DNA of 47,713 nucleotides. Origin: a virus (lineage: Duplodnaviria > Heunggongvirae > Uroviricota > Caudoviricetes). Made by a program: the position numbers and the translations under genes. Of this stretch, positions 2,472 to 46,412 are shown one piece after another (the first letter of the stretch is position 1; each line of letters starts with the position of its first letter). The notes beneath the pieces were generated by a model, which searched no databases, was not told where the DNA came from, and worked only from the letters and a program-made list of their open reading frames with translations. The DNA lies in the IMG/VR virus record IMGVR_UViG_2541047774_000010. One strand, written 5' to 3'.

Positions 2472-3605
2472 ATGAATTATGAAAAATATCATAGCACAAA
2501 CAGAAGCAAGGGTTTGCGAACCTTCTGCTACTTAATTTATTATGTGCAGGTGATTTTTAATGTGATGAAGTGTTTTATGACTCGCGGAAACTTTGATTTT
2601 ATAAACTCTAACGTGGTTTTCTCAGAAGCCGATAAGTCATTGTGGATTGATCTCATTAACACCGATTGTATTTGGTATGATATGATAATTAATCCTCCTG
2701 ATGATATAAGAACAAATAAGATAATAAAGAACTATCTCAGAATTATGGAAAAATATACGAGGGAAAGCTGTGAAAAGAGATTTATTTATTTCTTAGGTTC
2801 AAGAAAAAAAGTGAGGTTTTCAACCAAGAAACAGCCTAGGTATAACCCATTCACAAAAAATATAGTATTCACTCTGTTGATTGGCAAAGAAGAGCGAAAG
2901 CTTCGGATAAAATATTCCTTTTGCACGTTTACGCAGAATGGGGTAGTGAAGGTAACTCCAAATGTTAGAGTAACTGAGAAGTTTCTCTACATTGAATATG
3001 AAAATGGCAATTTATGTGTGATGTCAGTTCATGATTTCGTAAACGGACATTATATTGATTTAGGAATTCATACAGAAGTGCATTACGTAGGATATACACG
3101 TCATCCGCATCGGCGCCCTGTTGATTTTATTCACCGTGGCTTATCAAAGATGCTGTATAGCGTTTCAAATGACGATAATGATTTTTTTGTTTGTTTTAGT
3201 ATATTTAATCCAAGGATTATATCTCTGAATAATAAATGTAATGTGGTCTTTAATATTTCAAATTCTCTACTGGATGAAATTGATGTTGATAATGAGGGGA
3301 GAATTATTGAAAACTGCTTAATACGTTACTTTGATCCTAAGCTTCAAGATGATGACAAGGAAAGTAAAAGGTCAGATTTAAATAAAATGTTTATGGACCT
3401 GGTGGAAAATAAAAAAATTAAAAAAATATACGTTAATTTTCAATATGAAAGGAATAATGAGTATTTCTGCTTTTACTCTAAAGTTGTTCCGCCGAAATTT
3501 CATCATTTCTTTGTGTTGGATTTTTCTGATGGCAAGATAAATATTGATAGAGACCAGGATATGATGACTCAGATGGCATTGTGCATGGGGTATTATAATT
3601 ATTAA
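2472..3605 (+). CDS. Hypothetical protein, AT-rich cargo gene of unknown function (start may be internal, near 2562-2577)
   Basis: 377-aa ORF in visibly AT-rich DNA (not quantified) unlike flanking phage genes; Lys/Asn/Ile/Tyr/Phe-rich; no family recognised; possible N-terminal hydrophobic stretch CYLIYYVQVIFNV; AGGGA 10 nt upstream of ATG 2472. Confidence 0.6.
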   Translation: MNYEKYHSTNRSKGLRTFCYLIYYVQVIFNVMKCFMTRGNFDFINSNVVFSEADKSLWIDLINTDCIWYDMIINPPDDIRTNKIIKNYLRIMEKYTRESCEKRFIYFLGSRKKVRFSTKKQPRYNPFTKNIVFTLLIGKEERKLRIKYSFCTFTQNGVVKVTPNVRVTEKFLYIEYENGNLCVMSVHDFVNGHYIDLGIHTEVHYVGYTRHPHRRPVDFIHRGLSKMLYSVSNDDNDFFVCFSIFNPRIISLNNKCNVVFNISNSLLDEIDVDNEGRIIENCLIRYFDPKLQDDDKESKRSDLNKMFMDLVENKKIKKIYVNFQYERNNEYFCFYSKVVPPKFHHFFVLDFSDGKINIDRDQDMMTQMALCMGYYNY

Positions 3606-3814
3606 TATTTCGCCTGATGCCAACTCAAAATCTTTTTTGTCGCATCCATTGTGGATTAATATTCAGAGGTAAGGGGTATCTGCGGAATTTATATTTTGCA
3701 GGATGAGCATACAATACATGATATAACATCTGTTTTTGGCACAGAGCATATAGTCAGATTATGTTTAGTTCTGTGCCATAGATGGATATTATCTCACCTC
3801 TTGGCTAACTCTCA

Positions 3815-4009
3815 TTACTCAATAACTCCAGCAAATCTGTATATTTTGCGTGATGCCCATTTATTTGGGCAGGATTTAATATCAGGATCTGGAAAATCTG
3901 GCCTGTATTTCTGGCCTGTCCTCCTGTTTACGCTGTTCCAGCGAAGCACCGTCGATATTGAAACGCCACAGAATTCGGCGACTTGTTTTGTTGTCATTAA
4001 GTTGCTCAT
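3815..4009 (-). CDS. AlpA/excisionase-family HTH DNA-binding protein (putative Xis or regulator)
   Basis: 64-aa ORF with strong RBS (GGAGGGG); TKQVAEFCGVSISTVLRW helix-turn-helix followed by YRPDFPDPDIK...KIYRF, resembling the AlpA/Xis pattern. Confidence 0.5.
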   Translation of the reverse strand: MSNLMTTKQVAEFCGVSISTVLRWNSVNRRTGQKYRPDFPDPDIKSCPNKWASRKIYRFAGVIE

Positions 4010-4043
4010 TGCTACCCCTCCAGCGGTTGTTCAGTTGAAAGAC

Positions 4044-4580
4044 TCATGCGCATGTGCGTAACTCCGATAACTCGTTAAAGCGTTCCATAAACATCCCGTA
4101 GGCATGGCCTGGCGACAGTGGAATAACTTTGAACATCTCTGTGGCAGAGATGCCTTCCAGTACTGGCCAGAAAGAGCCATCATCAAGCCCGAGATCGCGG
4201 CGTTCGGTTGCCAGCATGATGAGATCGGCATATTTCACGGGTGTACTCATAACCGGGGGTAACCCGTATTTCTCACGGATTACTGTGTCTATTTTTTCTT
4301 CCATCCGTTTATAGTCAGGAAGAAAGCGTTTCAGTGGTGCGGGGATGTCCTGGCAATACGCTTCTGTTGCATCATGCATTAACGCTTCAAAAGCAAATTC
4401 CTGCGGTACCAGCTGGCTGCAAAGCACCGCATGTTGGGCGACGCTGTAGAAGTGTGAAAGATGACCGGCAAAGCGACAGATATTTGAAAGGGAAACCGCG
4501 ATATCGTTAATATCGATGTCGTCTTTATTTATCCTGTCATAATAAAAATGCTTCCCGGAAAAAGTTTTAATAAATGACAT
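4044..4580 (-). CDS. yfdR: HD-domain phosphohydrolase, YfdR-like
   Basis: 178 aa from MSFIKTF with RBS GGAGAA; H...HD motif (SVAQHA...ALMHDATEAY); length and sequence resemble CPS-53 YfdR as recalled. Confidence 0.75.
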   Translation of the reverse strand: MSFIKTFSGKHFYYDRINKDDIDINDIAVSLSNICRFAGHLSHFYSVAQHAVLCSQLVPQEFAFEALMHDATEAYCQDIPAPLKRFLPDYKRMEEKIDTVIREKYGLPPVMSTPVKYADLIMLATERRDLGLDDGSFWPVLEGISATEMFKVIPLSPGHAYGMFMERFNELSELRTCA

Positions 4581-4707
4581 TTTGTTCTCCACGTATATGC
4601 GTTGCACCGTGCTGAATTCTGGTAAAAGGAAGCCCTCACCATCTGGCGATTATTGGGTAAATTATGTTGACATAAATGCCCCCGCAGGGGCATTTGCAGT
4701 AATGAAA

Positions 4708-5532
4708 TCAGGCGGTGAAAGTACCAATAAAGGTTTCTACTTTGCTGTCTTTGAATTTCTCAACAAGCAGATCACGAAATTCGTTAGCCATTTCTTCCTG
4801 CACCGCTTCCAGCTGAATAATGCGCAGAACCAGTACAGGACGATCGCCAGTGATAATGCTGAGGCGTAATTTAAACGGACGTTCTTTCAGACCTTCAAAC
4901 GGAACGCATTTAAATTCAAATGCCACTGGCATAATGTCTTTGGTCTTCGCTTCGACAGACTCCATCAGGGAGCGTTTGCCGCTGAAGTCATTATCTTCAA
5001 AATCAGCGGTCTGGTTCGCTTCAATTGTGATTTTACGGATCGCCGCAGCCGCTTTGGTTGCCTGAATGGCGTCACCATTAGCATCAAAGCCCACAAGGTA
5101 GTCGGCCCAGTCTTCAATCCATTCTGCCAGTGACTTCTGGGAGTTACGCTCGCCGTTAACAGACAACAGGGCAGAGAACGGTGCTGTCTTTTTCAGTTTG
5201 AGAGTGGCGGTGTTATCTGCGTGACCTGGTTCATCAATAGTACCCAGGTTAAGCACACTGACTGCTCGCATATTATCGGCATCGATAAAGCAGCGGGTGC
5301 CTTCATCTGCAAGATCTTTAGAATAACGGGTAAAGTCATCGATGCTGGCAGTGGAAAGCGCACCACGGAAACGGAAGCGATTTAAATTAAATTTTTCCAG
5401 ATCATGAATGCGGAAATTCTCAGGCAATGCCACAGCATCGGCACCAATCTTACTGATAATTTCATTAACACCCTGAGCAGAAATAAGGGCATGGATTTGA
5501 TTAATTGCGGTTGCGTCTAAGTTCTGAGACAT
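4708..5532 (-). CDS. yfdQ: DUF2303-family protein, YfdQ-like
   Basis: 274-aa ORF; length and sequence resemble CPS-53 YfdQ as recalled; same gene order as yfdP-yfdQ-yfdR. Confidence 0.75.
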
Positions 5533-5597
5533 AATAAGTCCTCACTATATAAAGATATTCAGTGATGAGATAAATAATCGGTTAATTAAGAACGATA

Positions 5598-5960
5598 TTA
5601 ATGACCTGCTGCGCGGAGTTTTCCGTCAGGTTCACCGGCAAGAGTCAGTAATTGTCCCTGGTCTTCCTGCAGAATAGTCAGGCGACCACCGCGATTGACA
5701 TACATCGGCGTTTCGGTGGTGTCTTCTTCGGAAATTTTCCCGCGGTTAGTCGGGCGAACATATGAGAGTTTGTGTTTGATTTTCACACGGTTCTCATCAA
5801 ATGGTTCGATTTCCAGGTTGAGTGAGACCTTACCTTTGGTTTTCGTGTTCATCACACCTGAAGCGACTTCACTGAGAACTGCGCCGATTTTGGTTTCAAA
5901 TACGCCGCCGTCCAGCTCCCCGATAAATGCCTGCACATCAGTACTGCGTTCGCTAGCCAT
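5598..5960 (-). CDS. yfdP: YfdP-like hypothetical protein
   Basis: 120 aa from MASERST with AGGAG 8 nt upstream; the track ORF extends further 5' from a TTG; position and size as for CPS-53 yfdP. Confidence 0.65.
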   Translation of the reverse strand: MASERSTDVQAFIGELDGGVFETKIGAVLSEVASGVMNTKTKGKVSLNLEIEPFDENRVKIKHKLSYVRPTNRGKISEEDTTETPMYVNRGGRLTILQEDQGQLLTLAGEPDGKLRAAGH

Positions 5961-6175: not shown

Positions 6176-6584
6176 ATCTCCGGCTTGCGGTTATTTCAGA
6201 CTCTCACGGGTGTTTAATTGCCCCGCCGAACAGCTCTTTTCCGCAATAGCTGCAATGTCTTTCGCGCATCAGCCTGCGCATTCACCACAACGCTGAGAGC
6301 ACTTAGCCAGTTACGGCACCACACTTTGTCGCGGTTCCATAAATGCCCTCATCGTTGCACCCTGGTCTCTTCCCAGGTGTCAAACCGAACCGCCACGCTG
6401 GTTAGGCGTCTTATCAGCATCATCATTGACTTGCACATTCCGGCTACCTGGTTTGTTTGCCCGAGCAAGGAGTGGATTGTCCCCTTTAACGTCCCCAGAC
6501 CGCTAACGACGCATGTGCCATACGCCGTGTTACAACCAAATTTTGTTAGTACCTTGTTTGTTGGTCTGGAAAGAAAGATAAAAT

Positions 6585-6630
6585 GAAGTTGCGCATTATG
6601 CAAGTGTTTTTGTTGCGAGATATGCAATTT
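6585..6630. promoter_or_regulatory. OL-like operator repeats and putative leftward early promoter
   Basis: Two 15-bp sites of form TTGCG-N5-TGCAA (TTGCGCATTATGCAA at 6589-6603, TTGCGAGATATGCAA at 6613-6627), similar to the sites between cI and cro; located just beyond the cI terminator. Confidence 0.4.
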
Positions 6631-6682: not shown

Positions 6683-7375
6683 TTAATTGTGTCGCTTAAG
6701 GGTTTGTGACTGGCTGATTAAGACCTTTCCAAAGACCATAAACCGGTGTTCATTTTCGCTGGTAATTCCCCATTCACGGTAAATCTGGTTATCAGAAATC
6801 ACCAGTAGTTTGTCAGGTATCATTTGCAGTCGTTTGACATAAATTTTATCATCAAAACCAAATACATAGATACCATCTCCATCAAACTGATTGATACTGA
6901 CATCAACGAAGATGAGATCTCCTGGCTCAATGGTTGGACACATACTGTCCCCACGAACGTTGATTACTTTAATGTGATTTGCTGGCCGTCCGCCAAACAT
7001 CGATACAGCATTATCAGTTCTGTATTCAATGGCATGAATCACATCAATGACATCACCGCCCTGGATAAGGCCATTTCCCGCACTGGCACTGATATCCAGC
7101 ATTTCAATACGGAATACATCCTTCACCTGCGCAACATCCTCACTAATACTGTTTTTACATACAGTATTACTTTTGAAGTCTGAGGTAAAGAGATCAGCAA
7201 TATCAACACCTAAGCTCCTGGCAATATTACTCAGGGCTTGTTCAGTGAATTGTTTCTGCTTACCTGTTTCCAGGCGCGAGATATTTGCCGCATCCACTCC
7301 TATTGCTTCAGCGAGATCGGCGATTTTCATGTTCTTCGCTTGGCGAAGTTGTCTGACTCGATTTCCTATGTTCAT
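6683..7375 (-). CDS. cI: CI-like prophage repressor (XRE HTH plus S24 LexA-type peptidase domain)
   Basis: 230 aa; N-terminal HTH (VRQLRQAKNMKIADLAEAIGVDAANISRLETG); Ala-Gly cleavage site (SASAG); C-terminal GDSMCPTIEPGDLIFVD with the Lys of the catalytic dyad; divergent from cro. Confidence 0.93.
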   Translation of the reverse strand: MNIGNRVRQLRQAKNMKIADLAEAIGVDAANISRLETGKQKQFTEQALSNIARSLGVDIADLFTSDFKSNTVCKNSISEDVAQVKDVFRIEMLDISASAGNGLIQGGDVIDVIHAIEYRTDNAVSMFGGRPANHIKVINVRGDSMCPTIEPGDLIFVDVSINQFDGDGIYVFGFDDKIYVKRLQMIPDKLLVISDNQIYREWGITSENEHRFMVFGKVLISQSQTLKRHN

Positions 7376-7733: not shown

Positions 7734-8277
7734 GCATCACTGGAAAGTGGAAAAACAGCCTGAGTGGTACGTGAAAGCTGTCAGAAAAACTATCGCGGCG
7801 TTGCCGGGGGGTTACGCTGAAGCTGCTGAGTGGCTGGATGTAACAGAGAACGCTTTATTCAACCGCCTTCGTGCAGATGGCGATCAGATTTTCCCGCTGG
7901 GATGGGCAATGATTTTACAGCGCGCTGCTGGCACTCACTACATTGCGGATGCTGTCGCACAGTCTGCTGGTGGGGTGTTTGTATCGCTTCCTGAAATTGA
8001 GGAAGTAGAGAACGCCGATATAAACCAGCGCCTGCTGGAAGTCATCGAACAAATCGGGAGTTACTCAAAGCAGATTCGTTCGGCAATCGAAGATGGGGTA
8101 GTGGAGCCACACGAGCAGACAGCAATTAATGATGAGTTGTATCTGTCGATTTCGAAGCTCCAGGAGCATGCGGCACTGGTCTACAAAATTTTCTGCGCTC
8201 CAGAAAAGAGTGACGCCCGCGAGTGTGCAGCTCCGGGCGTCGTGGCGTTTTGTGTCTGTGGAGAAACTAACGCATGA
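7726..8277 (+). CDS. Early regulatory protein in the CII position (YdaT/CII-like); GTG start
   Basis: 183-aa ORF beginning at a GTG with AGGAG 8 nt upstream, overlapping the cro stop; the call rests mainly on position. Confidence 0.45.
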   Translation: MGKHHWKVEKQPEWYVKAVRKTIAALPGGYAEAAEWLDVTENALFNRLRADGDQIFPLGWAMILQRAAGTHYIADAVAQSAGGVFVSLPEIEEVENADINQRLLEVIEQIGSYSKQIRSAIEDGVVEPHEQTAINDELYLSISKLQEHAALVYKIFCAPEKSDARECAAPGVVAFCVCGETNA

Positions 8278-8602
8278 ACAGTTTAACGGCAAATAACCGT
8301 TTGTCGCAACAGCTGGTGGTCAGCGTCTCTGAACACCTGTTGTTACGGCATGAATGCAGATTACCAAATCACCAGGCTGTAAGTAACCACAGAGAACTTT
8401 ACCTGACTGTGGGGGGCGAGTTGTGCAGGAACTTAACCGCTGGTTTCGTGACGGAAGAGGGCTTTATGTTCATGTTATTCGTTGGGAACCAGAAACACAG
8501 CGCGTTATCTATCTTCGCAAAGACTACCCGCATGAGTGCTTTAGTCCTTTGTGGAAATTCAGGCGTGATTTTGTTGAGTGTGACGGACCACCAACACATT
8601 GA
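8274..8602 (+). pseudogene. Small early gene split by a G6 homopolymer (frame disrupted in this sequence)
   Basis: ATG 8274 with good RBS (GGAGA); frame 0 runs through G6 at 8411-8416 into non-coding-looking sequence; the protein-like continuation VQELNRWFRDGRGLYVHVIRWEPETQRVIYLRKDYPHECFSPLWKFRRDFVECDGPPTH (8423-8602) lies in the +1 frame. Confidence 0.4.
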
Positions 8603-8687
8603 TTCTGCCATTCCGGGACGTTACACTGTTCAGGCACCTTATAAAACGGGTGCCGGGCGTGGAAACCCGGAATTCACCAAAGCGCAC

Positions 8688-8711
8688 AACCGCGCTCTTG
8701 CGGTTTTTTTG
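8688..8711 (+). terminator. Intrinsic terminator (tR1-like position)
   Basis: AACCGC-GCTCTT-GCGGTT hairpin followed by T7; it lies inside the track's 8274..9425 ORF, arguing that region is not coding. Confidence 0.45.
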
Positions 8712-8879
8712 TGTCATGAGCAGCATTACGCCCAAATTATGGTGGGGCGTGCAGGGCCAACTTCGGTTGGGCCGGGTTCTTTGGTGACCGGTATTTCCAC
8801 CCCTGTACGTCTCACCACCAATAAGGTCGTGGAAAGCCTTGGTGGTGAGTTATTAAAAATCACCAAAGAGGCTGCCATC

Positions 8880-9425
8880 ATGGCTACGATCCCAACCCTC
8901 ACTCAACCTGAAATTGCCATCGTTGATGGTCAGGTTGTTACTTCATCCCTGGCTGTTGCCAACTTCTTCTCCAAACGTCATGACGATGTACTGAAAAAGA
9001 TCCGCACGCTTGAATGCTCAGCATCATTCACTGCCCGCAATTTTTCGGTGAGTGATTACACTGATTGCACAGGTCGCAAACTTCATTGCTACCAAATCAC
9101 ACGCGATGGTTTTGCGTTTCTTGCTATGGGTTTCACGGGTAAACGTGCTGCCCAGTTCAAAGAGGCATATATCAATGCCTTTAACCAGATGGAGAAACAG
9201 CTTTCAAAGCCCGCTGTACCGAGCGACGTTGCACATAACGCCAGCGTTCTCTGTTCCTACATTTCATCAATTCATCAGGTCTGGCTGCAGCAGCTTTATC
9301 CTATGTTGGCAAAAGCCGAATCTCCGCTGGCTGTTAGCTTATATGATTATATTAATGATGCTTCGGCGCTGGCCTGCCTCATAAATTTGTCGCTGAACCC
9401 TTCAGAGGTAAGGGGGCGCAAATGA
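8880..9425 (+). CDS. rha: Rha-family phage regulatory protein (antirepressor-like)
   Basis: 181 aa from MATIPTLTQPEIAIVDGQVVTSS with RBS AAGAGG; motif GFAFLAMGFTGKRAAQFKEAYINAFNQME is typical of Phage_pRha. Confidence 0.8.
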   Translation: MATIPTLTQPEIAIVDGQVVTSSLAVANFFSKRHDDVLKKIRTLECSASFTARNFSVSDYTDCTGRKLHCYQITRDGFAFLAMGFTGKRAAQFKEAYINAFNQMEKQLSKPAVPSDVAHNASVLCSYISSIHQVWLQQLYPMLAKAESPLAVSLYDYINDASALACLINLSLNPSEVRGRK

Positions 9426-9646
9426 TCCGGAATATTTTCAAACGTTTTACCAATCAGACTTTCCGTTGTCCTCGTCCGGGTCAGTGGTACACCACGCCTG
9501 CAGGGCATGTTCTACGTGTTAGCCTGGTTGACCGTGAATGTCAGAAGGTGGTTTGTGAACCGCTGGGCCGTAATTACCGCGTCAGTATGCCGCTTATAGC
9601 CTTTTGCTCCGGAAAAAACATGAAGCATCTCGGAGGTGCAGCATGA
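9422..9646 (+). CDS. Hypothetical protein
   Basis: 74-aa ORF translationally coupled to rha (ATGA overlap) with RBS AGGGGG; no family recognised. Confidence 0.4.
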   Translation: MIRNIFKRFTNQTFRCPRPGQWYTTPAGHVLRVSLVDRECQKVVCEPLGRNYRVSMPLIAFCSGKNMKHLGGAA

Positions 9647-10461
9647 GTATGGAGCTGATGGTTAAAGCGATGAAAATTCGAGTGGGTAATCCATTGCGAA
9701 AACTGGTTCTGATCAAGCTGGCTGATAATGCCAGCGATCAGGGTGAGTGCTGGCCCAGCTACCAGCATATTGCTGACCAGTGCGAGATTAGCAAACGTTC
9801 TGTGATGAATCATATTGCGGCCCTTTGTGATTCCGGGCTGGTAAAAAAAGTCACCCGGAAAAGTGAAAAAGGTAACTCAAGTAATATCTATCTCCTTCAT
9901 CTGGATGGTGCAGGAGATTCACTAGGGGGTAGTGCAAATAATTCACTATCTGGTGCAGCAAATTCACCAGGTAGTGCAGGAGTTGCACCAGGGGGTGGTG
10001 CAGGAGATTCACCCAGAACCAGTCACTCTTTTGAACCAGTCAAAGAACCAGTCAATGAACCAATAGCTGTTGGTGCATCTGCTGATGAGTCTGTGCGAGT
10101 TCGTTCAAACCGACCGGAATACTCTCCGGAGTTTGAGCAGGCATGGCTGGCATACCCCAAACGTGCTGGTGGCAATTCAAAATCTGCAGCCTTCAAAGCC
10201 TGGAAAGCCCGTTTGAATGAGGGGGTAAAACCCGAAACCATGCTGGAAGGTGTGAAACGCTACGCGGGCTGGGTATCTGCGATGGGTAACAGCGGCACAC
10301 AATTTGTGAAACAGGCTGTCACGTTCTTTGGTCCGGATCGTCATTTCGAAGAATCCTGGGAAGTTCCTGCGGTATCTGCAGCCAGACGCGAGGACCCGTA
10401 CTTCAAAGCCAGTTACGACAACGTGGACTACAGCCAGATCCCGGCAGGATTCAGGGGGTAA
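9643..10461 (+). CDS. O: Replication initiator, lambda O-like (N-terminal HTH, iteron-encoded linker, C-terminal domain)
   Basis: Start MSMELMV with RBS GGAGGTG; N-terminal HTH (LIKLADNASDQGECWPSYQHIADQCEISKRSVMNHIAAL); Gly/Ser/Ala linker encoded by the iterons; C-terminal EFEQAWLAYPKR...AFKAWK resembles the lambda O C-terminus. Confidence 0.7.
   Translation: MSMELMVKAMKIRVGNPLRKLVLIKLADNASDQGECWPSYQHIADQCEISKRSVMNHIAALCDSGLVKKVTRKSEKGNSSNIYLLHLDGAGDSLGGSANNSLSGAANSPGSAGVAPGGGAGDSPRTSHSFEPVKEPVNEPIAVGASADESVRVRSNRPEYSPEFEQAWLAYPKRAGGNSKSAAFKAWKARLNEGVKPETMLEGVKRYAGWVSAMGNSGTQFVKQAVTFFGPDRHFEESWEVPAVSAARREDPYFKASYDNVDYSQIPAGFRG
9907..10068 (+). repeat. Putative origin of replication: five ~20-bp iterons plus three 12-bp tandem repeats inside the O-like gene
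   Basis: Five direct repeats of consensus GGTGCAGGAGATTCAC starting near 9907, 9928, 9952, 9970 and 9994; then GAACCAGTCAAA, GAACCAGTCAAT, GAACCAATAGCT at 10033-10068. Confidence 0.55.
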
Positions 10462-10463
10462 TC

Positions 10464-10952
10464 ATGAGTCTTTTGAATGAAGTTCAGAAATTCATTGAAG
10501 CCCATCCGGGGTGTACTTCCGGAGACATTGCAGATGCTTTTGCAGGTTACTCACGGCAGCGCGTTCTGCAGTCAGCAAGCAAGTTACGTCAGAGTGGGCG
10601 TGTGGCTCACCGTTGTGAAGGAGATACACGCAGACATTTCCCGCGCCTGACTGAGAGAGCGCAGGAGCCGGAACCACAACCAGTTCGTGAAACCAGACCT
10701 GTGCGCAATTTCTATGTCGGCACTAACGATCCCCGGGTAATTTTGTGCCTGACCCGCCAGGCTGAAGAACTGGAGTCCAGGGGCTTATACCGTCGTGCTG
10801 CAACCGTGTGGATGGCGGCATTCCGTGAAAGCCACTCCCAGTCAGAACGAAACAATTTTCTGGCGCGCCGTGAGCGGTGCTTACGGAAAAGCAGCAAGCG
10901 CGCTGTATCGGGTGATGAGTGGTATCTGTCAGGGAATTACGTGTGGGCTTAA
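10464..10952 (+). CDS. Hypothetical protein with C-terminal PerC-like motif
   Basis: 162 aa; C-terminal AEELESRGLYRRAATVWMAAF...SERNNFLARRERC resembles the PerC/Pch regulator signature (GLYRRAA) as recalled. Confidence 0.45.
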   Translation: MSLLNEVQKFIEAHPGCTSGDIADAFAGYSRQRVLQSASKLRQSGRVAHRCEGDTRRHFPRLTERAQEPEPQPVRETRPVRNFYVGTNDPRVILCLTRQAEELESRGLYRRAATVWMAAFRESHSQSERNNFLARRERCLRKSSKRAVSGDEWYLSGNYVWA

Positions 10953-11278
10953 TGACGACGTTAACTCAATGCCAGCAGCAGGTGCTGGATATGCTGATTT
11001 CTTATCAGAAAGAACGTGGTTTCCCGCCAACCAATCAGGAGGTGGCAGCCATGCTGGGATACCGTTCGGTGAATGCAGCGGTGGAGCATCTTCGCGCACT
11101 GGAGAAAAAAGGCGTCATCACGATAAAGCGTGGCGTGGCCCGGGGTATCACGCTTCATACCACAGTGAAGGACGACGACAGCGAGGCAGCCGGGATTATC
11201 CGCGCACTGCTTGCCGGTGAGGAAAACGCCAGACTGCGTGCAGCCCACTGGTTACATGAGAGGGGCCTGAAAGTATGA
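10952..11278 (+). CDS. LexA DNA-binding-domain-like protein lacking a peptidase domain
   Basis: Start MTTLTQCQQQV (TAATG coupling to the upstream gene); LTQCQQQVLDMLISYQKERGFPPTNQEVAAMLGYRSVNAAVEHLRALEKKGVI resembles the LexA N-terminal winged helix; no S24 domain follows. Confidence 0.55.
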   Translation: MTTLTQCQQQVLDMLISYQKERGFPPTNQEVAAMLGYRSVNAAVEHLRALEKKGVITIKRGVARGITLHTTVKDDDSEAAGIIRALLAGEENARLRAAHWLHERGLKV

Positions 11279-11664
11279 AGCTGATCCTGCCTTTCCCGCC
11301 CAGCGTGAACACGTACTGGCGACACCCCAACAAAGGGGCGTTTGCTGGTAAGAGCCTGATAAGCGCGGCGGGGCGCAAATTCCAGAGCGCGGCGTGTGCA
11401 GCAATATTTGAGCAGTTACGTCGTCTGCCAAAACCAACGTCGGCACCTGCTTCAGTGGAGATCGTGTTGTTTCCTCCGGATAACCGGATCCGCGATCTGG
11501 ACAACTATAACAAGGCGCTGTTTGACGCCCTGACCCACGCGGGTGTGTGGGAAGACGACAGTCAGGTGAAAAGAATGCTGGTGGAGTGGGGACCGGTTAT
11601 CCCGGAAGGGAAGGTCGAGATCACTATCAGTAAGTACGAGAAAACGGCGGGTGCAGCCGCCTGA
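11275..11664 (+). CDS. rusA: Holliday junction resolvase RusA
   Basis: 129 aa; LPFPPSVNTYWRH...RDLDNYNKALFDALTHAGVWEDDSQV matches the RusA family. Confidence 0.88.
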   Translation: MKLILPFPPSVNTYWRHPNKGAFAGKSLISAAGRKFQSAACAAIFEQLRRLPKPTSAPASVEIVLFPPDNRIRDLDNYNKALFDALTHAGVWEDDSQVKRMLVEWGPVIPEGKVEITISKYEKTAGAAA

Positions 11665-13430: not shown

Positions 13431-14853
13431 TGCCAGTCAGTTAAGCAACTGACTGGCTCTTTTTCGGGGCTGTGGGGTATTTCCAGGGCCTCTCCTTTAC
13501 CACTCTCGGGAAGGCCCTTTCCCTTCTTGTCGGTAATTTCACAAGTTGTCCCATACTTGCAAGATCGTGCATCAGCTCCGGTATACGTCCCGGTGAAGCG
13601 CCCTGCAATGTCATCAGCATTCTCATCACCATTCCGCATGATTCTGAGAAACTCAGTTGATTCGGCCAGTAACCTTTCAGATGTTCCGCCATTTTAATCA
13701 TCTGATATCTCACCAGATTATAAGCCAGTAAGACACCCCACAGCTCTTGCTCCACAAGCTCCGGCTTTTTACTTCTCAGCGTCAGCCTGCTCAGTTGCAT
13801 CGTCTGTTTTATCTCCCTGTATCCCAGTTCGATTTCCCAGCGATGACTGTACAGATCCGCCATTTCTCCTCCGGGGAAGCGCATGGCGTCCGTCATCGAC
13901 GTCAGCAGATGGCAGACTTTTCCTTTGCGCGTCACGGTCAGCAGGCGGGCTGTCACCTCATTTCCCAGTCCCGGCCACTTTTTTCGTGCCTGCGGGCTGG
14001 TTTTCAGCTTCACCAGATGATCGCCTTTACCCAGTTTTCTGATCTCTTCATATTGCGCTCCCTTTCTGAGAGGGATCATCCAGTGGCGGTGTTCTCCCGC
14101 CAGGCTCCAGGCATTTAACAGTCCCAGTGAGTAATAACCTTTGTCCATTAACGTCAGAGTGTTATCGCCGGTTTGTTCTATAAGTTGCTCAGCAAGCTCA
14201 TTTTCGCTGTTCTTCATCGTGCCGAAGGCTGCAGCCGTCAGCAGATGGCTGGTCAGTTCCATCTGGCAGACCATTTTGACCTGCGGGTAGAGCGCCGGGT
14301 TCCCGGCATGTGTCTGGCGGGGGAAGGCTGCATCGTTCTCTGGTGTATCCGGTGTGCGCCAGAACACACCATCGATGGCCAGCAGGGTCAGGCCGCACCA
14401 TTGCGGATGCGGCGTGGCGTTATGCCAGAGCTGCGCTGTTTTCGTGAACACGCGGCGGACAGCCTCACTTCCCAAGCGCTGGCGGGCCTGAATAACGGCA
14501 CTGGGGGCAACGAAGGGGCGATTGCCCGGCAGCATGATGTCCAGGCGATTCACAATCTGGTGAAGAGGTTCTTTACGCTCAAGCGCCATGCCAACAATAC
14601 ACCAGACCATCATTTCGAGGGGAAGACGGCGCTTGCGTAGCGTTACAGTACCTGATTCGGCAAGGCAACGAGAGATGAGTTCGGGGTCGAGGTAATCCCC
14701 CAGAGAAGTCAGTGGGTTACGCAGAGAATCGTAACGGGATACCAAATCAAGGGCCTGTCCAATGTGCATAAAAAAATCCGGAAACGAGTGAGCGTTTCCG
14801 GATTCTTACACAGCCACTGGATCGGTCAACTGATCCTTAACTGATCGGCATTA
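13428..14853 (-). mobile_element. IS4 insertion sequence, complete, with 13-bp target site duplication
   Basis: 1426 bp, the canonical IS4 length; terminal inverted repeats TAATGCCAGTCAGTTAAGC (left) and reverse complement of TAATGCCGATCAGTTAAGG (right); flanking direct repeats CTCCCAACTGGAG at 13415-13427 and 14854-14866. Confidence 0.92.
13441..14769 (-). CDS. insG: IS4 transposase
   Basis: 442-aa ORF matching the IS4 transposase in length and sequence as recalled. Confidence 0.93.
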
Positions 14854-14930
14854 CTCCCAACTGGAGCTGATATTTCGTTTTATCGATCGTGCGCTGGCAA
14901 TTGGCGTACTGGCGTAAGTGGAGAACGAGC

Positions 14931-15683
14931 ATGAACCTTGAAGCCTTACCAAAATATTACTCCCCAAAATCTCCAAAATTGAGTGATGCCGCACCGGCGA
15001 CAGGCTCAGGTGGTTTAACGATTACGGATGTGATGGCTGCGCAGGGGATGGTGCAGTCGAAAGCACCGCTTGGGTTTGCCTTATTCCTGGCAAAAGCTGG
15101 CGTTCAGGATCCTCAGTTTGCGATTGAAGGTCTGCTCAATTACGCGATGGCACTGGATAACCCGACATTGAACAAATTGAGTGAAGAAATCCGGTTACAG
15201 ATCATCCCTTACCTTGTGAGTTTTGCCTTTGCTGATTATTCCAGGTCTGCGGCAAGTAAGGCTCGCTGTGAGCCTTGTGCTGGTACTGGATTTCATAATG
15301 TATTGCGCGAAGTGGTGAAATACTCCAGAAGCGGGGAGTCTGTTATCAAGGAAGAGTGGGTGAAGGAACTATGTCAGCATTGTCATGGTAAGGGAGAAGT
15401 CAGCACAGCGTGCAGAGGGTGTAAGGGTAAAGGTATTGTCCTGGATGAAAAAAGGACCCGGCTTCATGGCGCGCCTGTTTATAAGATTTGTGGGCGTTGC
15501 AATGGAAACCGGTTTAGTCGTTTACCAACGACACTGGCGCGGCGTCATGTCCAGAAGCTGGTACCAGACCTGACTGATTATCAGTGGTACAAAGGATATG
15601 CAGATGTCATTGATAAACTGGTTACAAAGTGCTGGCAGGAAGAAGCATATGCTGAGGTGCAATTAAGAAAAGTGACGAGATAA
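14931..15683 (+). CDS. Late-gene antiterminator Q-like protein (zinc-binding)
   Basis: Start MNLEALPKYY with RBS GTGGAGAA; three CxxCxGxG-type motifs (CEPCAGTGF, CQHCHGKGEV, CRGCKGKG); sits between the nin-like genes and a strong promoter/terminator pair. Confidence 0.6.
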   Translation: MNLEALPKYYSPKSPKLSDAAPATGSGGLTITDVMAAQGMVQSKAPLGFALFLAKAGVQDPQFAIEGLLNYAMALDNPTLNKLSEEIRLQIIPYLVSFAFADYSRSAASKARCEPCAGTGFHNVLREVVKYSRSGESVIKEEWVKELCQHCHGKGEVSTACRGCKGKGIVLDEKRTRLHGAPVYKICGRCNGNRFSRLPTTLARRHVQKLVPDLTDYQWYKGYADVIDKLVTKCWQEEAYAEVQLRKVTR

Positions 15684-16311: not shown

Positions 16312-16611
16312 AAAAATTCCTTAATACTGATAACTGGGCGCACTATACACACGTTCCTGAAGAAAGCTATAGTTTTTTGATGGGGTTGAAGATGGCTGGA
16401 TGTCTAAAATAAACATTGCTTCATATGTTCAACTATGCGTTAATGATTGCGTCGGTTTGAAGAACAGACGATATACGAAGTAGTTTACTAAAGCAGTTCT
16501 CATTTCAGGTGTTATTCACTTATTCCTTCTTTGAGTCTCTCCAATTAAGTACGAAGTCGTTTCTGTTATACAAGCCATTTATGCCGAAAGGCTCAAGTTA
16601 AGGAATGTAGA

Positions 16612-16827
16612 ATGTCAAATAAAATGACTGGTTTAGTAAAATGGTTTAACGCTGATAAAGGTTTTGGCTTTATTTCTCCTGTTGATGGTAGTAAAGATGT
16701 GTTTGTGCATTTTTCTGCGATTCAGAATGATAATTTTCGAACCTTATTTGAAGGTCAAAAGGTTACCTTCTCTGTAGAGAGTGGTGCTAAAGGTCCTGCA
16801 GCAGCAAATGTCATAATTACTGATTAA
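16612..16827 (+). CDS. cspB: Cold shock protein CspB-like
   Basis: 71 aa [38 protein letters not shown], a CspA-family protein matching CspB as recalled. Confidence 0.88.
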
Positions 16828-17108
16828 AATTCATAGTTTGTCTGTATACGATAACGAAGAAGGCTGATGCCTGAGTGGAGATACAGACAGAGTGGTGAAT
16901 ATTGGATCTCTTTAATAAATAGTAAGGAGGTCCAATACATGAAACAATGGCCAGCATATTTGGCAATAACTTAATCAGGAAAAGTATGCTAACCATTGTG
17001 GTGAAGTGCAGGTTTGCTGCATGAATAGTTTTACAGCAGAAGCTAACTGCTGGCATAGCAAAACAAAGTGCGTAAGTGGATGACTCCCACAAAAAGTACC
17101 ACAATATT

Positions 17109-19700: not shown

Positions 19701-20060
19701 ATTAATATTAAATCGGATTATTTTTAGCGCTGAATGTGAAATTTAAATAAAAAGGACTCTTCCATGAGTCAAAATCCTTGAAATCTTAAGGGTAAGATAA
19801 AAGGTCATTAGACAGAATGACACGTTTTATTAATAAATAAAGCTATTGTTTCATTCGTGTGTTTTTCTTTACAAAAGTAATCCTTGCTATGGTTGGTTAA
19901 TCATGCGTTAATGGTGTTCTGGTTTGTTACAAAATTATCTGAAGCAGTCATTGTTATAATTTTATTATTTGTACCTCTTGAGATCTCCTTGTTGGTTTTT
20001 CTCTCTGATATTTTTTTTCGGACCATTCTGCCCAAGGGCTAACTTCTTCAAAAGGTAATA

Positions 20061-20276
20061 ATGATGTCTAACAAAATGACTGGTTTAGTGAAATGGTTTA
20101 ACCCTGAAAAAGGTTTTGGTTTCATCACGCCGAAAGATGGTAGCAAAGATGTGTTTGTCCATTTCTCAGTTATTCAGAGCAACGATTTCAAAACGTTAAC
20201 TGAGAATCAGGAAGTCGAATTTGGTATTGAGAACGGACCTAAAGGCCCCGCGGCTGTTCATGTAGTGGCACTTTGA
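20061..20276 (+). CDS. cspI: Cold shock protein CspI-like
   Basis: [70 protein letters not shown] matches CspI as recalled. Confidence 0.88.
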
Positions 20277-20480
20277 GGTAGAAAATATTACAAACCATAT
20301 TCACTTTAGATGCCCGTGTTGCCATGGTTCTCAGTATAGAACATCATCTTTTGATGTTTCTGACAGGAATCCTTTCGGGGCAAAATGTATCTTTTGTAAA
20401 TCAATGATGATTACATTTGATAATATTTCACAATACTTAAATGTTAGCCGTCTGTCGTTAGATTTAAGAAAGTGAAAATG

Positions 20481-21779: not shown

Positions 21780-22646
21780 CTAAGCGAGGTTCTGGTTTTC
21801 AAATTGTTCCGGACTGAGGCCGCCACACCAACTGTGCCGCCGCCACCGATTGTAATCACATTCGATATAATTAAACACCGTTGCCCGCATTATTTCCCGG
21901 CTGATAAAGTGTTCTCCATGGATACATTCCACTTTCAGCGAATGAAAGAAGCTTTCCACGCAGGCATTATCGTAGCAGCAACCTTTTGCGCTCATACTTC
22001 CACGCAGATTATGCCGCTTCAGTTGCGCCTGATAATCTGCTGAACAGTACTGGCCTCCACGGTCCGTGTGAACGATAACGTTCCGGGGCCTCTTACGCCG
22101 CCACAGCGCCATCTGCAGGGCATCGCAGGCCAGTTGCGCCGTCATGCGTGGCGACATTGACCAGCCAATAACGGCACGTGACCACAGGTCAATGACCACT
22201 GCCAGATACAGCCAGCCTTCATCTGTACGTAAGTACGTGATGTCTCCTGCCCACTTCTGGTTCGGGCCACTGGCGTAAAAATCCTGCTCCAACAGATTTT
22301 CTGACACAGGCAGGCCGTGTGCGCGGTAGCTGACCGGGCTGAACTTCCGGGAGGCCTTTGCCCTCAGTCCCTGACGGCGCAGGCTTGCCGCCACGGTTTT
22401 TACGTTAAAGGGGTAACCCTGAGCACGCAGTTCATCCGTCAGGCGTGGGGCACCGTAACGCTGTTTTGACCGGGTAAAAGCCGCGAGGACAACGCTGTCG
22501 CAGTGTTGGCGGAACTGCTGACGCGTGCTTATCCTTGTCCGCCGCTGACACCACGTATACCAGCCGCTGCGGGCCACCCGGAGCACGCGGCACATTGCTT
22601 TGATGCTGAACTCAGCCTGATGTTTTTCAATAAAGACATACTTCAT
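21780..22646 (-). CDS. insF: IS3 transposase OrfB (expressed as OrfAB by -1 frameshift)
   Basis: 288 aa [21 protein letters not shown]..., matching IS3 InsF as recalled. Confidence 0.93.
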
Positions 22647-38351: not shown

Positions 38352-41753
<3,402 letters not shown>

Positions 41754-45837: not shown

Positions 45838-46412
45838 TGGCATTCAGAATGAGTGAACAACCACGGACCATAAAAATTTATAATCTGCTGGCCGGAACTA
45901 ATGAATTTATTGGTGAAGGTGACGCATATATTCCGCCTCATACAGGTCTGCCAGCAAACAGTACCGATATTGCACCGCCAGATATTCCGGCAGGCTTCGT
46001 GGCTGTTTTCAACAGTGATGAGGCATCGTGGCATCTCGTTGAAGACCATCGGGGTAAAACGGTTTATGACGTAGCGTCAGGGGACGCGTTATTTATTTCT
46101 GAACTCGGTCCGTTACCGGAAAATGTTACCTGGTTATCGCCGGAAGGGGAGTTTCAGAAGTGGAACGGCACAGCCTGGGTGAAAGATGCAGAAGCAGAAA
46201 AACTGTTCCGGATCCGGGAGGCGGAAGAAACAAAAAACAGCCTGATGCAGGTAGCCAGTGAGCATATTGCGCCGCTTCAGGATGCTGCAGATCTGGAAAT
46301 TGCAACGGAGGAAGAAATCTCGTTGCTGGAAGCATGGAAAAAGTATCGGGTATTGCTGAACCGTGTTGATACGTCAACTGCACAGGATATTGAATGGCCA
46401 GCACTGCCGTAG
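45837..46412 (+). CDS. tfa: Tail fibre assembly protein Tfa
   Basis: 191 aa, translationally coupled to stf (TAATG); typical Tfa N-terminus ([36 protein letters not shown]). Confidence 0.85.

Follow-up and report, generated by a model that had tools for sequence, protein, structure and literature searches.

The window analysed here is a 47.7-kb stretch of viral DNA (IMG/VR record IMGVR_UViG_2541047774_000010) and represents a lambdoid prophage of the Escherichia coli/Shigella type. Its initiator gene (9643-10461, plus strand) encodes a 272-amino-acid (aa) protein of the SfV Orf39 type, as indicated by Pfam, PHROG and a comparison with SfV. Positions 9908-10066, inside this gene, very likely form the replication origin of this SfV/Stx2c-type (Eru6-like) prophage. 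The reading is supported by the conservation of the segment as DNA, by the covariation of a putative recognition helix with the repeats, by replication-module neighbourhoods and by a chimera with lambda O. An iteron origin within an initiator gene is a known kind of origin, and an invariant 30-nucleotide (nt) element next to the iterons is its one unexplained feature. From sequence comparisons we infer the binding, the unwinding site, the helicase partner and the origin activity itself.

The iteron array and the initiator protein

The first-pass annotation of this DNA had described five direct repeats of about 20 bp in the initiator gene. They were recovered as five GTGCA-N5-TKCAC units of 15-16 bp at 9908-10012 (codons 89-124), starting at 9908, 9932, 9953, 9974 and 9998, with start-to-start spacing of 24, 21, 21 and 24 bp. 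Iterons 1 (9908-9922, GTGCAGGAGATTCAC), 2 (9932-9946, GTGCAAATAATTCAC), 3 (9953-9967, GTGCAGCAAATTCAC) and 5 (9998-10012, GTGCAGGAGATTCAC) lie on the plus strand; iteron 4 (9974-9988, GTGCAGGAGTTGCAC) has fully palindromic outer arms and matches on both strands. The 24-bp step that precedes iteron 5 is kept family-wide. There is no other match to this motif in the 47.7 kb, where chance alone would give 0.38, and none of 100 shuffles reached the six matches counted, the sixth being the minus-strand match of iteron 4.

The gap of 5 nt inside each unit never varies, whereas the spacing from one unit to the next does, so the unit is a 15-mer with two 5-bp arms. These arms form an imperfect inverted repeat (GTGCA and TGCAC or TTCAC), as would be expected for a dimeric binder. 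As single-stranded DNA, the iteron region folds better than its shuffles (z about -2.8), which is expected from the dyad symmetry. A tandem-repeat finder had been proposed as a check on the repeats. They are indeed present, but Tandem Repeats Finder and a generic repeat finder recovered only parts of the two arrays, as the units differ in their central bases, and a gapped motif search was needed. The five units are all in frame and encode GAGDSL, GGSANNSL, SGAANSP, GSAGVAP and GGGAGDSP, a Gly/Ser/Ala/Pro-rich series. As had been noticed from the sequence, the repeats thus encode a linker, and AlphaFold2 predicts that this linker (aa 91-157), which spans both repeat sets, is disordered (predicted local distance difference test, pLDDT, about 33).

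The linker joins two predicted domains. The N-terminal one is a winged-helix DNA-binding domain (aa 1-87, encoded at 9643-9903 on the plus strand, pLDDT 82-92), with a Pfam HTH_36 match at aa 17-67 (E 2.8e-11, 43.5 bits against a cut-off of 25) and a putative recognition helix, CEISKRSVMNHI, at about aa 47-58, which covaries with the iteron class. The C-terminal one is helical (aa 160-243, encoded at 10120-10371 on the plus strand); it is called 'type 1' below and is a putative helicase-recruitment domain. The initiator matches PHROG 270, 'replication initiation protein', with an E-value of 2.8e-88. Its N-terminal 87 aa are 97.7% identical to those of SfV orf39, 97-99% identical across SfV, ST64B, 2H10, PhiR63_1 and Stx2c phages, and 96.6% identical to the same domain of the Eru6 reference phage Stx2a_WGPS2. 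As the repeat architecture and the gene order are also the same in SfV, the gene belongs to the SfV Orf39/PHROG 270 family. A search of solved structures with the initiator sequence gave no match, and Foldseek with the N-domain found generic winged helix-turn-helix (wHTH) folds only, including the DnaD N-domain 2v79.

The gene had been called O-like. This description stands for the architecture and fails for the sequence: no homology to lambda O was detected, as there was no PF04492 hit at E <= 0.01 and an hhalign alignment of the family against lambda O gave a probability of 0.6%.

Near-full-length copies of the initiator occur in 897 of 5,426 complete E. coli genomes, and fragments occur in half of them. 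In about half of the complete E. coli genomes, the match is limited to the last ~74 nt of the gene, beside yfdN (PerC family). These short matches look like remnants of the initiator in a widespread cryptic prophage, which we take to be the K-12 CPS-53 yfdO/yfdN region.

Conservation of the array as DNA

The protein family comprises 5,585 clusters at E <= 1e-5, and about 200 related loci were compared in total. A scan with one genome per species yielded 80 loci, from Enterobacterales, Pseudomonas, Shewanella, Marinomonas, Aeromonas, Marinobacter, Vreelandella, Wohlfahrtiimonas and others. About 40 of these 80, in at least 15 genera, have 3-6 GTGCA-type sites arrayed between +265 and +430 of the gene. 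In these arrays the last spacings are almost always 21, 21 and 24 bp, from Escherichia to Pseudomonas, Shewanella and Marinomonas.

Such repeats might be a low-complexity Gly/Ser/Ala/Pro linker that grew by slippage, the DNA repeats being a functionless by-product. All five units are in frame with similar peptides, the segment is predicted to be disordered, and copy number varies among near-identical E. coli genes, whose products range from 242 to 302 aa through the gain or loss of whole iteron units (21 or 24 nt) or of a 12-nt GAACCAGTCAAA unit. The iteron-number variants are P0001, P0002, P0018, P0024, P0030, P0037 and P0042, one of which has an additional GAACCAGTCAAA unit; the 5-iteron form is by far the commonest cluster, with 2,852 member sequences.

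The codon positions speak against slippage. Among 26 representatives less than 85% identical to each other, mean pairwise identity at codon positions 1, 2 and 3 was 0.73, 0.80 and 0.41 in the N-domain. The values for the last three iterons together with 41 nt were 0.71, 0.70 and 0.79, so that the third position is far better kept there, and just downstream identity fell to about 0.30 at every codon position. In GC-rich Pseudomonas loci, G+C at third codon positions (GC3) drops from 0.75-0.80 to 0.26-0.37 within the iteron segment. Moreover, the spacing in Pseudomonas is 23/22/21/24, which puts site 2 in another frame, where it encodes VVQEIHQG against G-A-G-D-S. In three further loci (L031, L065 and L037), the orientation of the asymmetric sites is reversed (GTGAA..TGCAC), and the peptides that they encode are E-S/N-S-A-P. 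The 21/21/24 spacing is nevertheless kept across orders. Because of the frame shift in Pseudomonas, the flipped sites, the third-position conservation and the GC3 drop, a repeat maintained for its peptide alone is excluded, and a slippage by-product is scarcely conceivable. As judged from these alignments, the pattern shows that selection acts on the DNA of the iteron region and not on the peptide alone.

Pairing of recognition helices and iterons

Loci without the GTGCA motif carry other dyad sites of the 5-N5-5 form in the same layout (4-5 sites, 21/21/24). When the sites were read at fixed offsets from the downstream 30-nt element, each iteron class was found with one recognition-helix sequence. 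Helices of the form CEIS[K/R/E]RSV.. go with GTG[C/A]A..T[G/T]CAC, CEISKRSVMRH with GTGAC..GTCAC, and CEI[G/A/S]RSTVK with GGGC[A/G] followed by TGCCC, TGACC or TAACC. Likewise, CEIDRSTVR goes with TAGGC..GCCTA or AAGCA, CECSKSAVR with TGCC[A/G]..TGGCA, and CEIGHSTVRK with TGCCA..TAGCA. The classes are independent of host and of C-terminal domain type; members of the GGGCA class, for example, come from Phytobacter, Enterobacter and Pseudomonas as well as from the E. coli Stx2a phage Min27.

A second, independent sample was obtained by scanning IMG/VR with the 30-nt DNA element and not with the protein, which gave at least 120 contigs. Among the 111 that have enough upstream sequence, 107 carry the N-domain in frame upstream, and these 107 element-anchored contigs show the same helix-to-site pairing with zero exceptions. 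Such pairing is the behaviour that these comparisons would lead one to attribute to an initiator and its own binding sites. The O/ori pairs of lambda, 434, 21 and phi80 have comparable initiator/site specificity; specificity pairs of N-domain and iteron are common to lambda-type phages and the present family.

In three classes, the most symmetric iterons have an inner CAG-N3-CTG core in common, and their differences lie in the outer 3 bp: GTGCAG..CTGCAC, GGGCAG..CTGCCC and TGCCAG..CTGGCA (window 9974-9988 and loci L053, L060 and L081, the last being Min27). This suggests that invariant residues may read the core and variable helix residues the outer triplet.

The 30-nt element and the downstream repeats

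The last iteron is directly followed by the 30-nt element CCAGAACCAGTCACTCTTTTGAACCAGTCA (10013-10042, plus strand), a candidate unwinding or helicase-loading site. It was found with at most 8 mismatches in 81 of 81 family sequences and with at most 3 in 73 of them. Its position is fixed, and its reading frame is the same in 79 of the 81. No second copy was found on either strand in about 500 kb of loci, and lambda and phi80 lack it (best 12-13 mismatches). The element remains unchanged across iteron classes, C-domains and hosts.

Three 12-bp repeats had been noticed after the iterons. They were confirmed as exact copies of GAACCAGTCA at 10016, 10033 and 10045, followed by a degenerate copy at 10057. 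The repeats (10016-10066, plus strand) have a spacing of 17, 12 and 12 bp, encode EPVKEPVNEP and belong to a larger conserved element, 10013-10066. Family-wide, GAAYCAGTCA occurs in 2-4 copies with this same 17, 12, 12 spacing.

A tentative reading is that CCAGAACCAGTCACTCTTTTGAACCAGTCA is a universal origin core recognised by its sequence, while the interchangeable iteron/helix pairs give replicon specificity and the route to the helicase depends on the interchangeable C-domains. An initiator surface that does not vary, or a host factor conserved among gammaproteobacteria (DnaB-DnaC or primase, for example), would then open the duplex or load onto it at this element. If so, the origin would have three plug-and-play parts and would serve phages of Enterobacterales, Pseudomonadales, Alteromonadales, Vibrionales and Aeromonadales, and melting would take place at a specific sequence, not at an AT-rich tract.

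Alternatively, and rather doubtfully, the invariance could reflect binding of a host protein by the encoded peptide, PRTSHSFEPV, as a conserved motif, or a stretch of homology at which N- and C-modules recombine. The element does lie exactly at the joint of the conserved N-module and at least 11 interchangeable C-modules, with a constant frame; it is not notably easy to melt and has no unusual single-strand structure. A peptide motif alone is insufficient, however, as synonymous positions are near-invariant, while amino-acid changes (P/S, T/I, F/L) are tolerated and codons rare in GC-rich Pseudomonas (AGA, AGT, TCT, TTT) are kept there. The near-identity of the element across bacterial orders also exceeds what recombination convenience normally keeps. 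A hairpin-type priming signal was ruled out, since single-strand folding of the element region was in no way unusual (z -0.3 and +0.6).

C-terminal domains, helicase genes and episomes

The N-domain, the iterons and the 30-nt element behave as one module, which occurs in fusion with at least 11 C-terminal domains that are unrelated to one another. In one locus (L018), the C-terminus is 37% identical to residues 155-270 of lambda O (E 3e-22). Because of this chimera with a lambda-O C-terminus, the module has evidently been exchanged in nature for the lambda O N-domain together with ori-lambda.

The genes downstream track the type of C-domain. The 'type 1' domain of the window is found in 25 loci, most of which continue with an IstB/DnaC-like ATPase (PF01695) and/or a DnaB helicase (PF03796), and after the 'type 3' domain comes a lambda P homologue (PF06992, E 1.6e-66); a PF06992 gene follows in L009. 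Only the window, SfV (L082) and a Leclercia prophage (L003) have neither helicase nor loader downstream. In these three the initiator is followed by the same PerC-like, LexA-DNA-binding-domain and RusA genes (window 10464-11664; SfV 3822-5672; L003 3759-6134), none of which is a helicase or loader, in agreement with the first-pass remark that no P-type loader gene follows. In many close relatives, a Dam methylase gene is inserted behind the PerC-like gene. The Pfam-scanned open reading frames (ORFs) between the integrase (1078) and Q (14889) genes yielded no domain of a helicase, loader or primase, in a scan that included 2472-3605 (no Pfam hit) and covered all but 3696-4061, 6218-6586 and RusA (11275-11664).

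Phage-sized circular records labelled as plasmids also carry the initiator, which speaks indirectly for an origin in this gene. Ten Arsenophonus nasoniae 'plasmids' of 28-104 kb (H103-H112), several of them from one host strain, have this initiator type, as do circular records of 39-45 kb (H88-H90, H93 and H94) from E. coli, Salmonella, Klebsiella, Shewanella and Microbulbifer. Such records may represent phages in episomal form, or phage-plasmids, that rely on this origin. Small plasmids made of the initiator gene alone were looked for and none was found, the carriers being all phage-sized episomes.

A model for initiation and its weighing

In the proposed model, dimers of the N-terminal winged-helix domain would bind the five dyad-symmetric 15-bp iterons. 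As these are about two helical turns apart, they would lie on one face of the DNA, and the bound dimers could form an O-some-like complex. The 30-45-nt element (10013-10066) would be the site of duplex opening and/or helicase placement, and the small C-terminal domain would recruit a DnaB-type helicase. Host DnaB would be needed, probably as DnaB-DnaC, because the phage lost or never had its own DnaB or loader. The later steps, namely opening or loading at the element and recruitment of host DnaB by the C-domain, have close to an even chance of being right, perhaps slightly below it.

Binding of the N-domain to these sites might also serve autoregulation, copy control by handcuffing or a roadblock, the true origin lying elsewhere in the prophage. 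Roles of plasmid iterons in autorepression and handcuffing are well established, the array is flanked by no strong AT-rich region, and the covariation speaks for binding specificity and not for origin firing. Elsewhere in the window, however, there is neither a further repeat array nor a further copy of the motif, and the invariant neighbouring element has a fixed place in all relatives. In addition, the module replaces the N-domain and ori of lambda in the chimera with the lambda-O C-terminus, and lambda and phi80 share the layout with annotated initiator-binding sites. A purely regulatory role is therefore judged improbable, and an origin at 9908-10066 is preferred.

Several observations weigh against this origin. 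The classical AT-rich unwinding region of the lambda family is absent beside the iterons: the 60 nt after the last iteron are 57% A+T, and the 30-bp stability of the element (-37 to -39 kcal/mol) makes it less stable than the regional mean of -41.5 (SD 2.9) by only about 1 standard deviation (SD), so that it is not among the least stable stretches. The least stable 30-bp stretches in 9000-11200 are 9331-9360 and 9865-9894, both upstream of the iterons. No DnaA box (TTWTNCACA) or integration host factor (IHF) site (WATCAANNNNTTR) was found in 9400-10700. Iteron number ranges from about 1 to 9 among near-identical E. coli genes, so that, should the prophages carrying these variants be viable, the demand on site number is not strict; in variant P0037, both the last iteron and the 30-nt element are missing. 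No informative structural match was obtained for the C-domain, and its putative partner is proposed from gene neighbourhoods alone. A literature search found no experimental origin activity for the family, whose replication is called unstudied in two papers (PMC12315714, PMC8951638). Finally, insertion sequences (IS) are present, and the prophage itself may be defective.

Of the two least stable stretches, 9331-9360 is at the end of the Rha gene and 9865-9894 is in the wing-coding part of the N-domain. The origin segment gave no promoter or terminator match, and its GATC sites, five in number, are scattered without a cluster.

Comparison with known replicons

In lambda (ori-lambda), as in phi80 gene 15 and the O genes of P27 and 933W, the iterons likewise lie inside the initiator gene, in the linker-coding part between the DNA-binding and recruitment domains. 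The annotation of lambda puts its four iterons at 39034-39118, with a spacing of 20/24/23 and a place in O from +348 to +432 (codons 117-145), and the phi80 gp15 sites are annotated within gene 15. Lambda and phi80 have 4-6 dyad-symmetric sites 20-24 bp apart, and the window has five, at 24/21/21/24, again about two helical turns. The likeness to lambda that the first-pass annotation had seen in the layout is thus borne out by position and spacing. Iteron number varies among lambda-type relatives too, where it alters protein length (PMC7466680). The window differs from lambda in the iteron sequence, in its unrelated type 1 C-domain and in that no P gene was found downstream; in place of the AT-rich tract, it has the invariant, moderately A+T 30-nt element.

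The SfV Orf39, ST64B, mEp460 and Stx2c 'replication protein' is the same gene, with nothing different in kind. The HTH_36 proteins of Eru5, 6, 8, 11 and 13 Shiga toxin (Stx) phages and the 'O-only' lambdoid modules fall into the same grouping. Casjens and colleagues found such an 'O-only' replication module in 34 of 314 lambdoid phages and described it as 'not yet understood' and experimentally unstudied (PMC12315714). Fagerlund et al. reported HTH_36 proteins in the Eru5, 6, 8, 11 and 13 phages and stated that nothing is known about Eru replication proteins (PMC8951638). No described origin was found for SfV, ST64B or Stx2c phages, although the SfV genome paper may mention one.

Iteron plasmids (pSC101 RepA, R6K pi, RK2 TrfA, F RepE) similarly place a winged-helix initiator on phased direct repeats. 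They take the helicase from the host without a dedicated plasmid loader, as is proposed for the window. They differ in having intergenic origins with DnaA boxes and AT-rich 13-mers, while the origin proposed here would be intragenic and has no DnaA box. Their Rep proteins have tandem winged helices (WH1-WH2), whereas the AlphaFold2 model of the window initiator has a single winged helix plus a linker. Within the unwinding element, plasmid Rep proteins bind one strand of repeated sequences (PMC4081077); this sets a precedent for a flanking element that is repeated and sequence-specific.

The likeness to DnaD-like organisers such as SPP1 G38P is weak and concerns the N-terminal wHTH (DnaD_N 24.3 bits; Foldseek 2v79, E about 0.03). 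PHROG 1701, 'DnaD-like helicase loader', shares the C-domain with the initiator. The origin of SPP1 lies in its organiser gene, gene 38.

The initiator is carried by SfV, ST64B, mEp460 and Stx2c phages, with related forms in Min27-type Stx2a phages, and Shiga-toxin output correlates with the type of replication protein (PMC4645166). A common phage replicon that has been called not understood is thus given a testable candidate origin, a putative binding code between helix and half-site, and a flanking element. The family also offers a natural set of apparently orthogonal initiator/iteron pairs, and it raises the question of how a helicase is recruited without a loader gene.

Genetic context of the prophage

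The window begins with a host HAD-hydrolase gene and the integrase gene (1078-2313). The immunity genes follow, with cI on the minus strand (6683-7375), then cro and a CP76-type cII. Between cII and the initiator lie an Ash/Rha gene and an ORF of 74 aa. Beyond the initiator come the PerC-like gene (10464-10952, plus strand, Pfam), the gene of a protein with a LexA DNA-binding domain (10919-11278, plus strand, Pfam) and rusA (11275-11664, plus strand), which was assigned from 98% identity to an SfV gene annotated as a crossover junction endodeoxyribonuclease. KilA-N and DUF968 genes come next, then an IS4-family insertion, Q (14889-15683), lysis genes and lambda-like head and tail genes. The order in SfV is identical from the cII-like gene to RusA (cII-like, Rha, small ORF, initiator, PerC-like, LexA DNA-binding domain, RusA), and the 1.6 kb around the initiator are 97-99.6% identical at the DNA level to mEp460, 2H10, PhiR63_1, 1720a-02 and Stx2c phages.

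Rfam matches place an isrK Hfq-binding RNA at 8634-8710 and a C4 antisense RNA at 8735-8822, just 5' of the coding part of the Ash/Rha gene. Because of these matches, the first ~200 codons of the 383-aa ORF 8274-9425 are probably non-coding. The arrangement at 8634-8822 resembles a P1/P7 immI-type antirepressor under antisense control, situated between cII and the replication gene.

The IS4-family transposase (442 aa, 13441-14769), between DUF968 and Q, was assigned by eye from the translation, and the late region contains a transposase of the rve type, IS3-like (21780-22646). Two full-length matches to the cspA thermoregulator 5' untranslated region (16451-16890 and 19917-20322; 156 and 117 bits) point to two cold-shock-protein-like genes in the region from Q to lysis. 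Rfam IS009 is matched over its full length (46180-46378, 221 bits) close to the tail-fibre end of the prophage.

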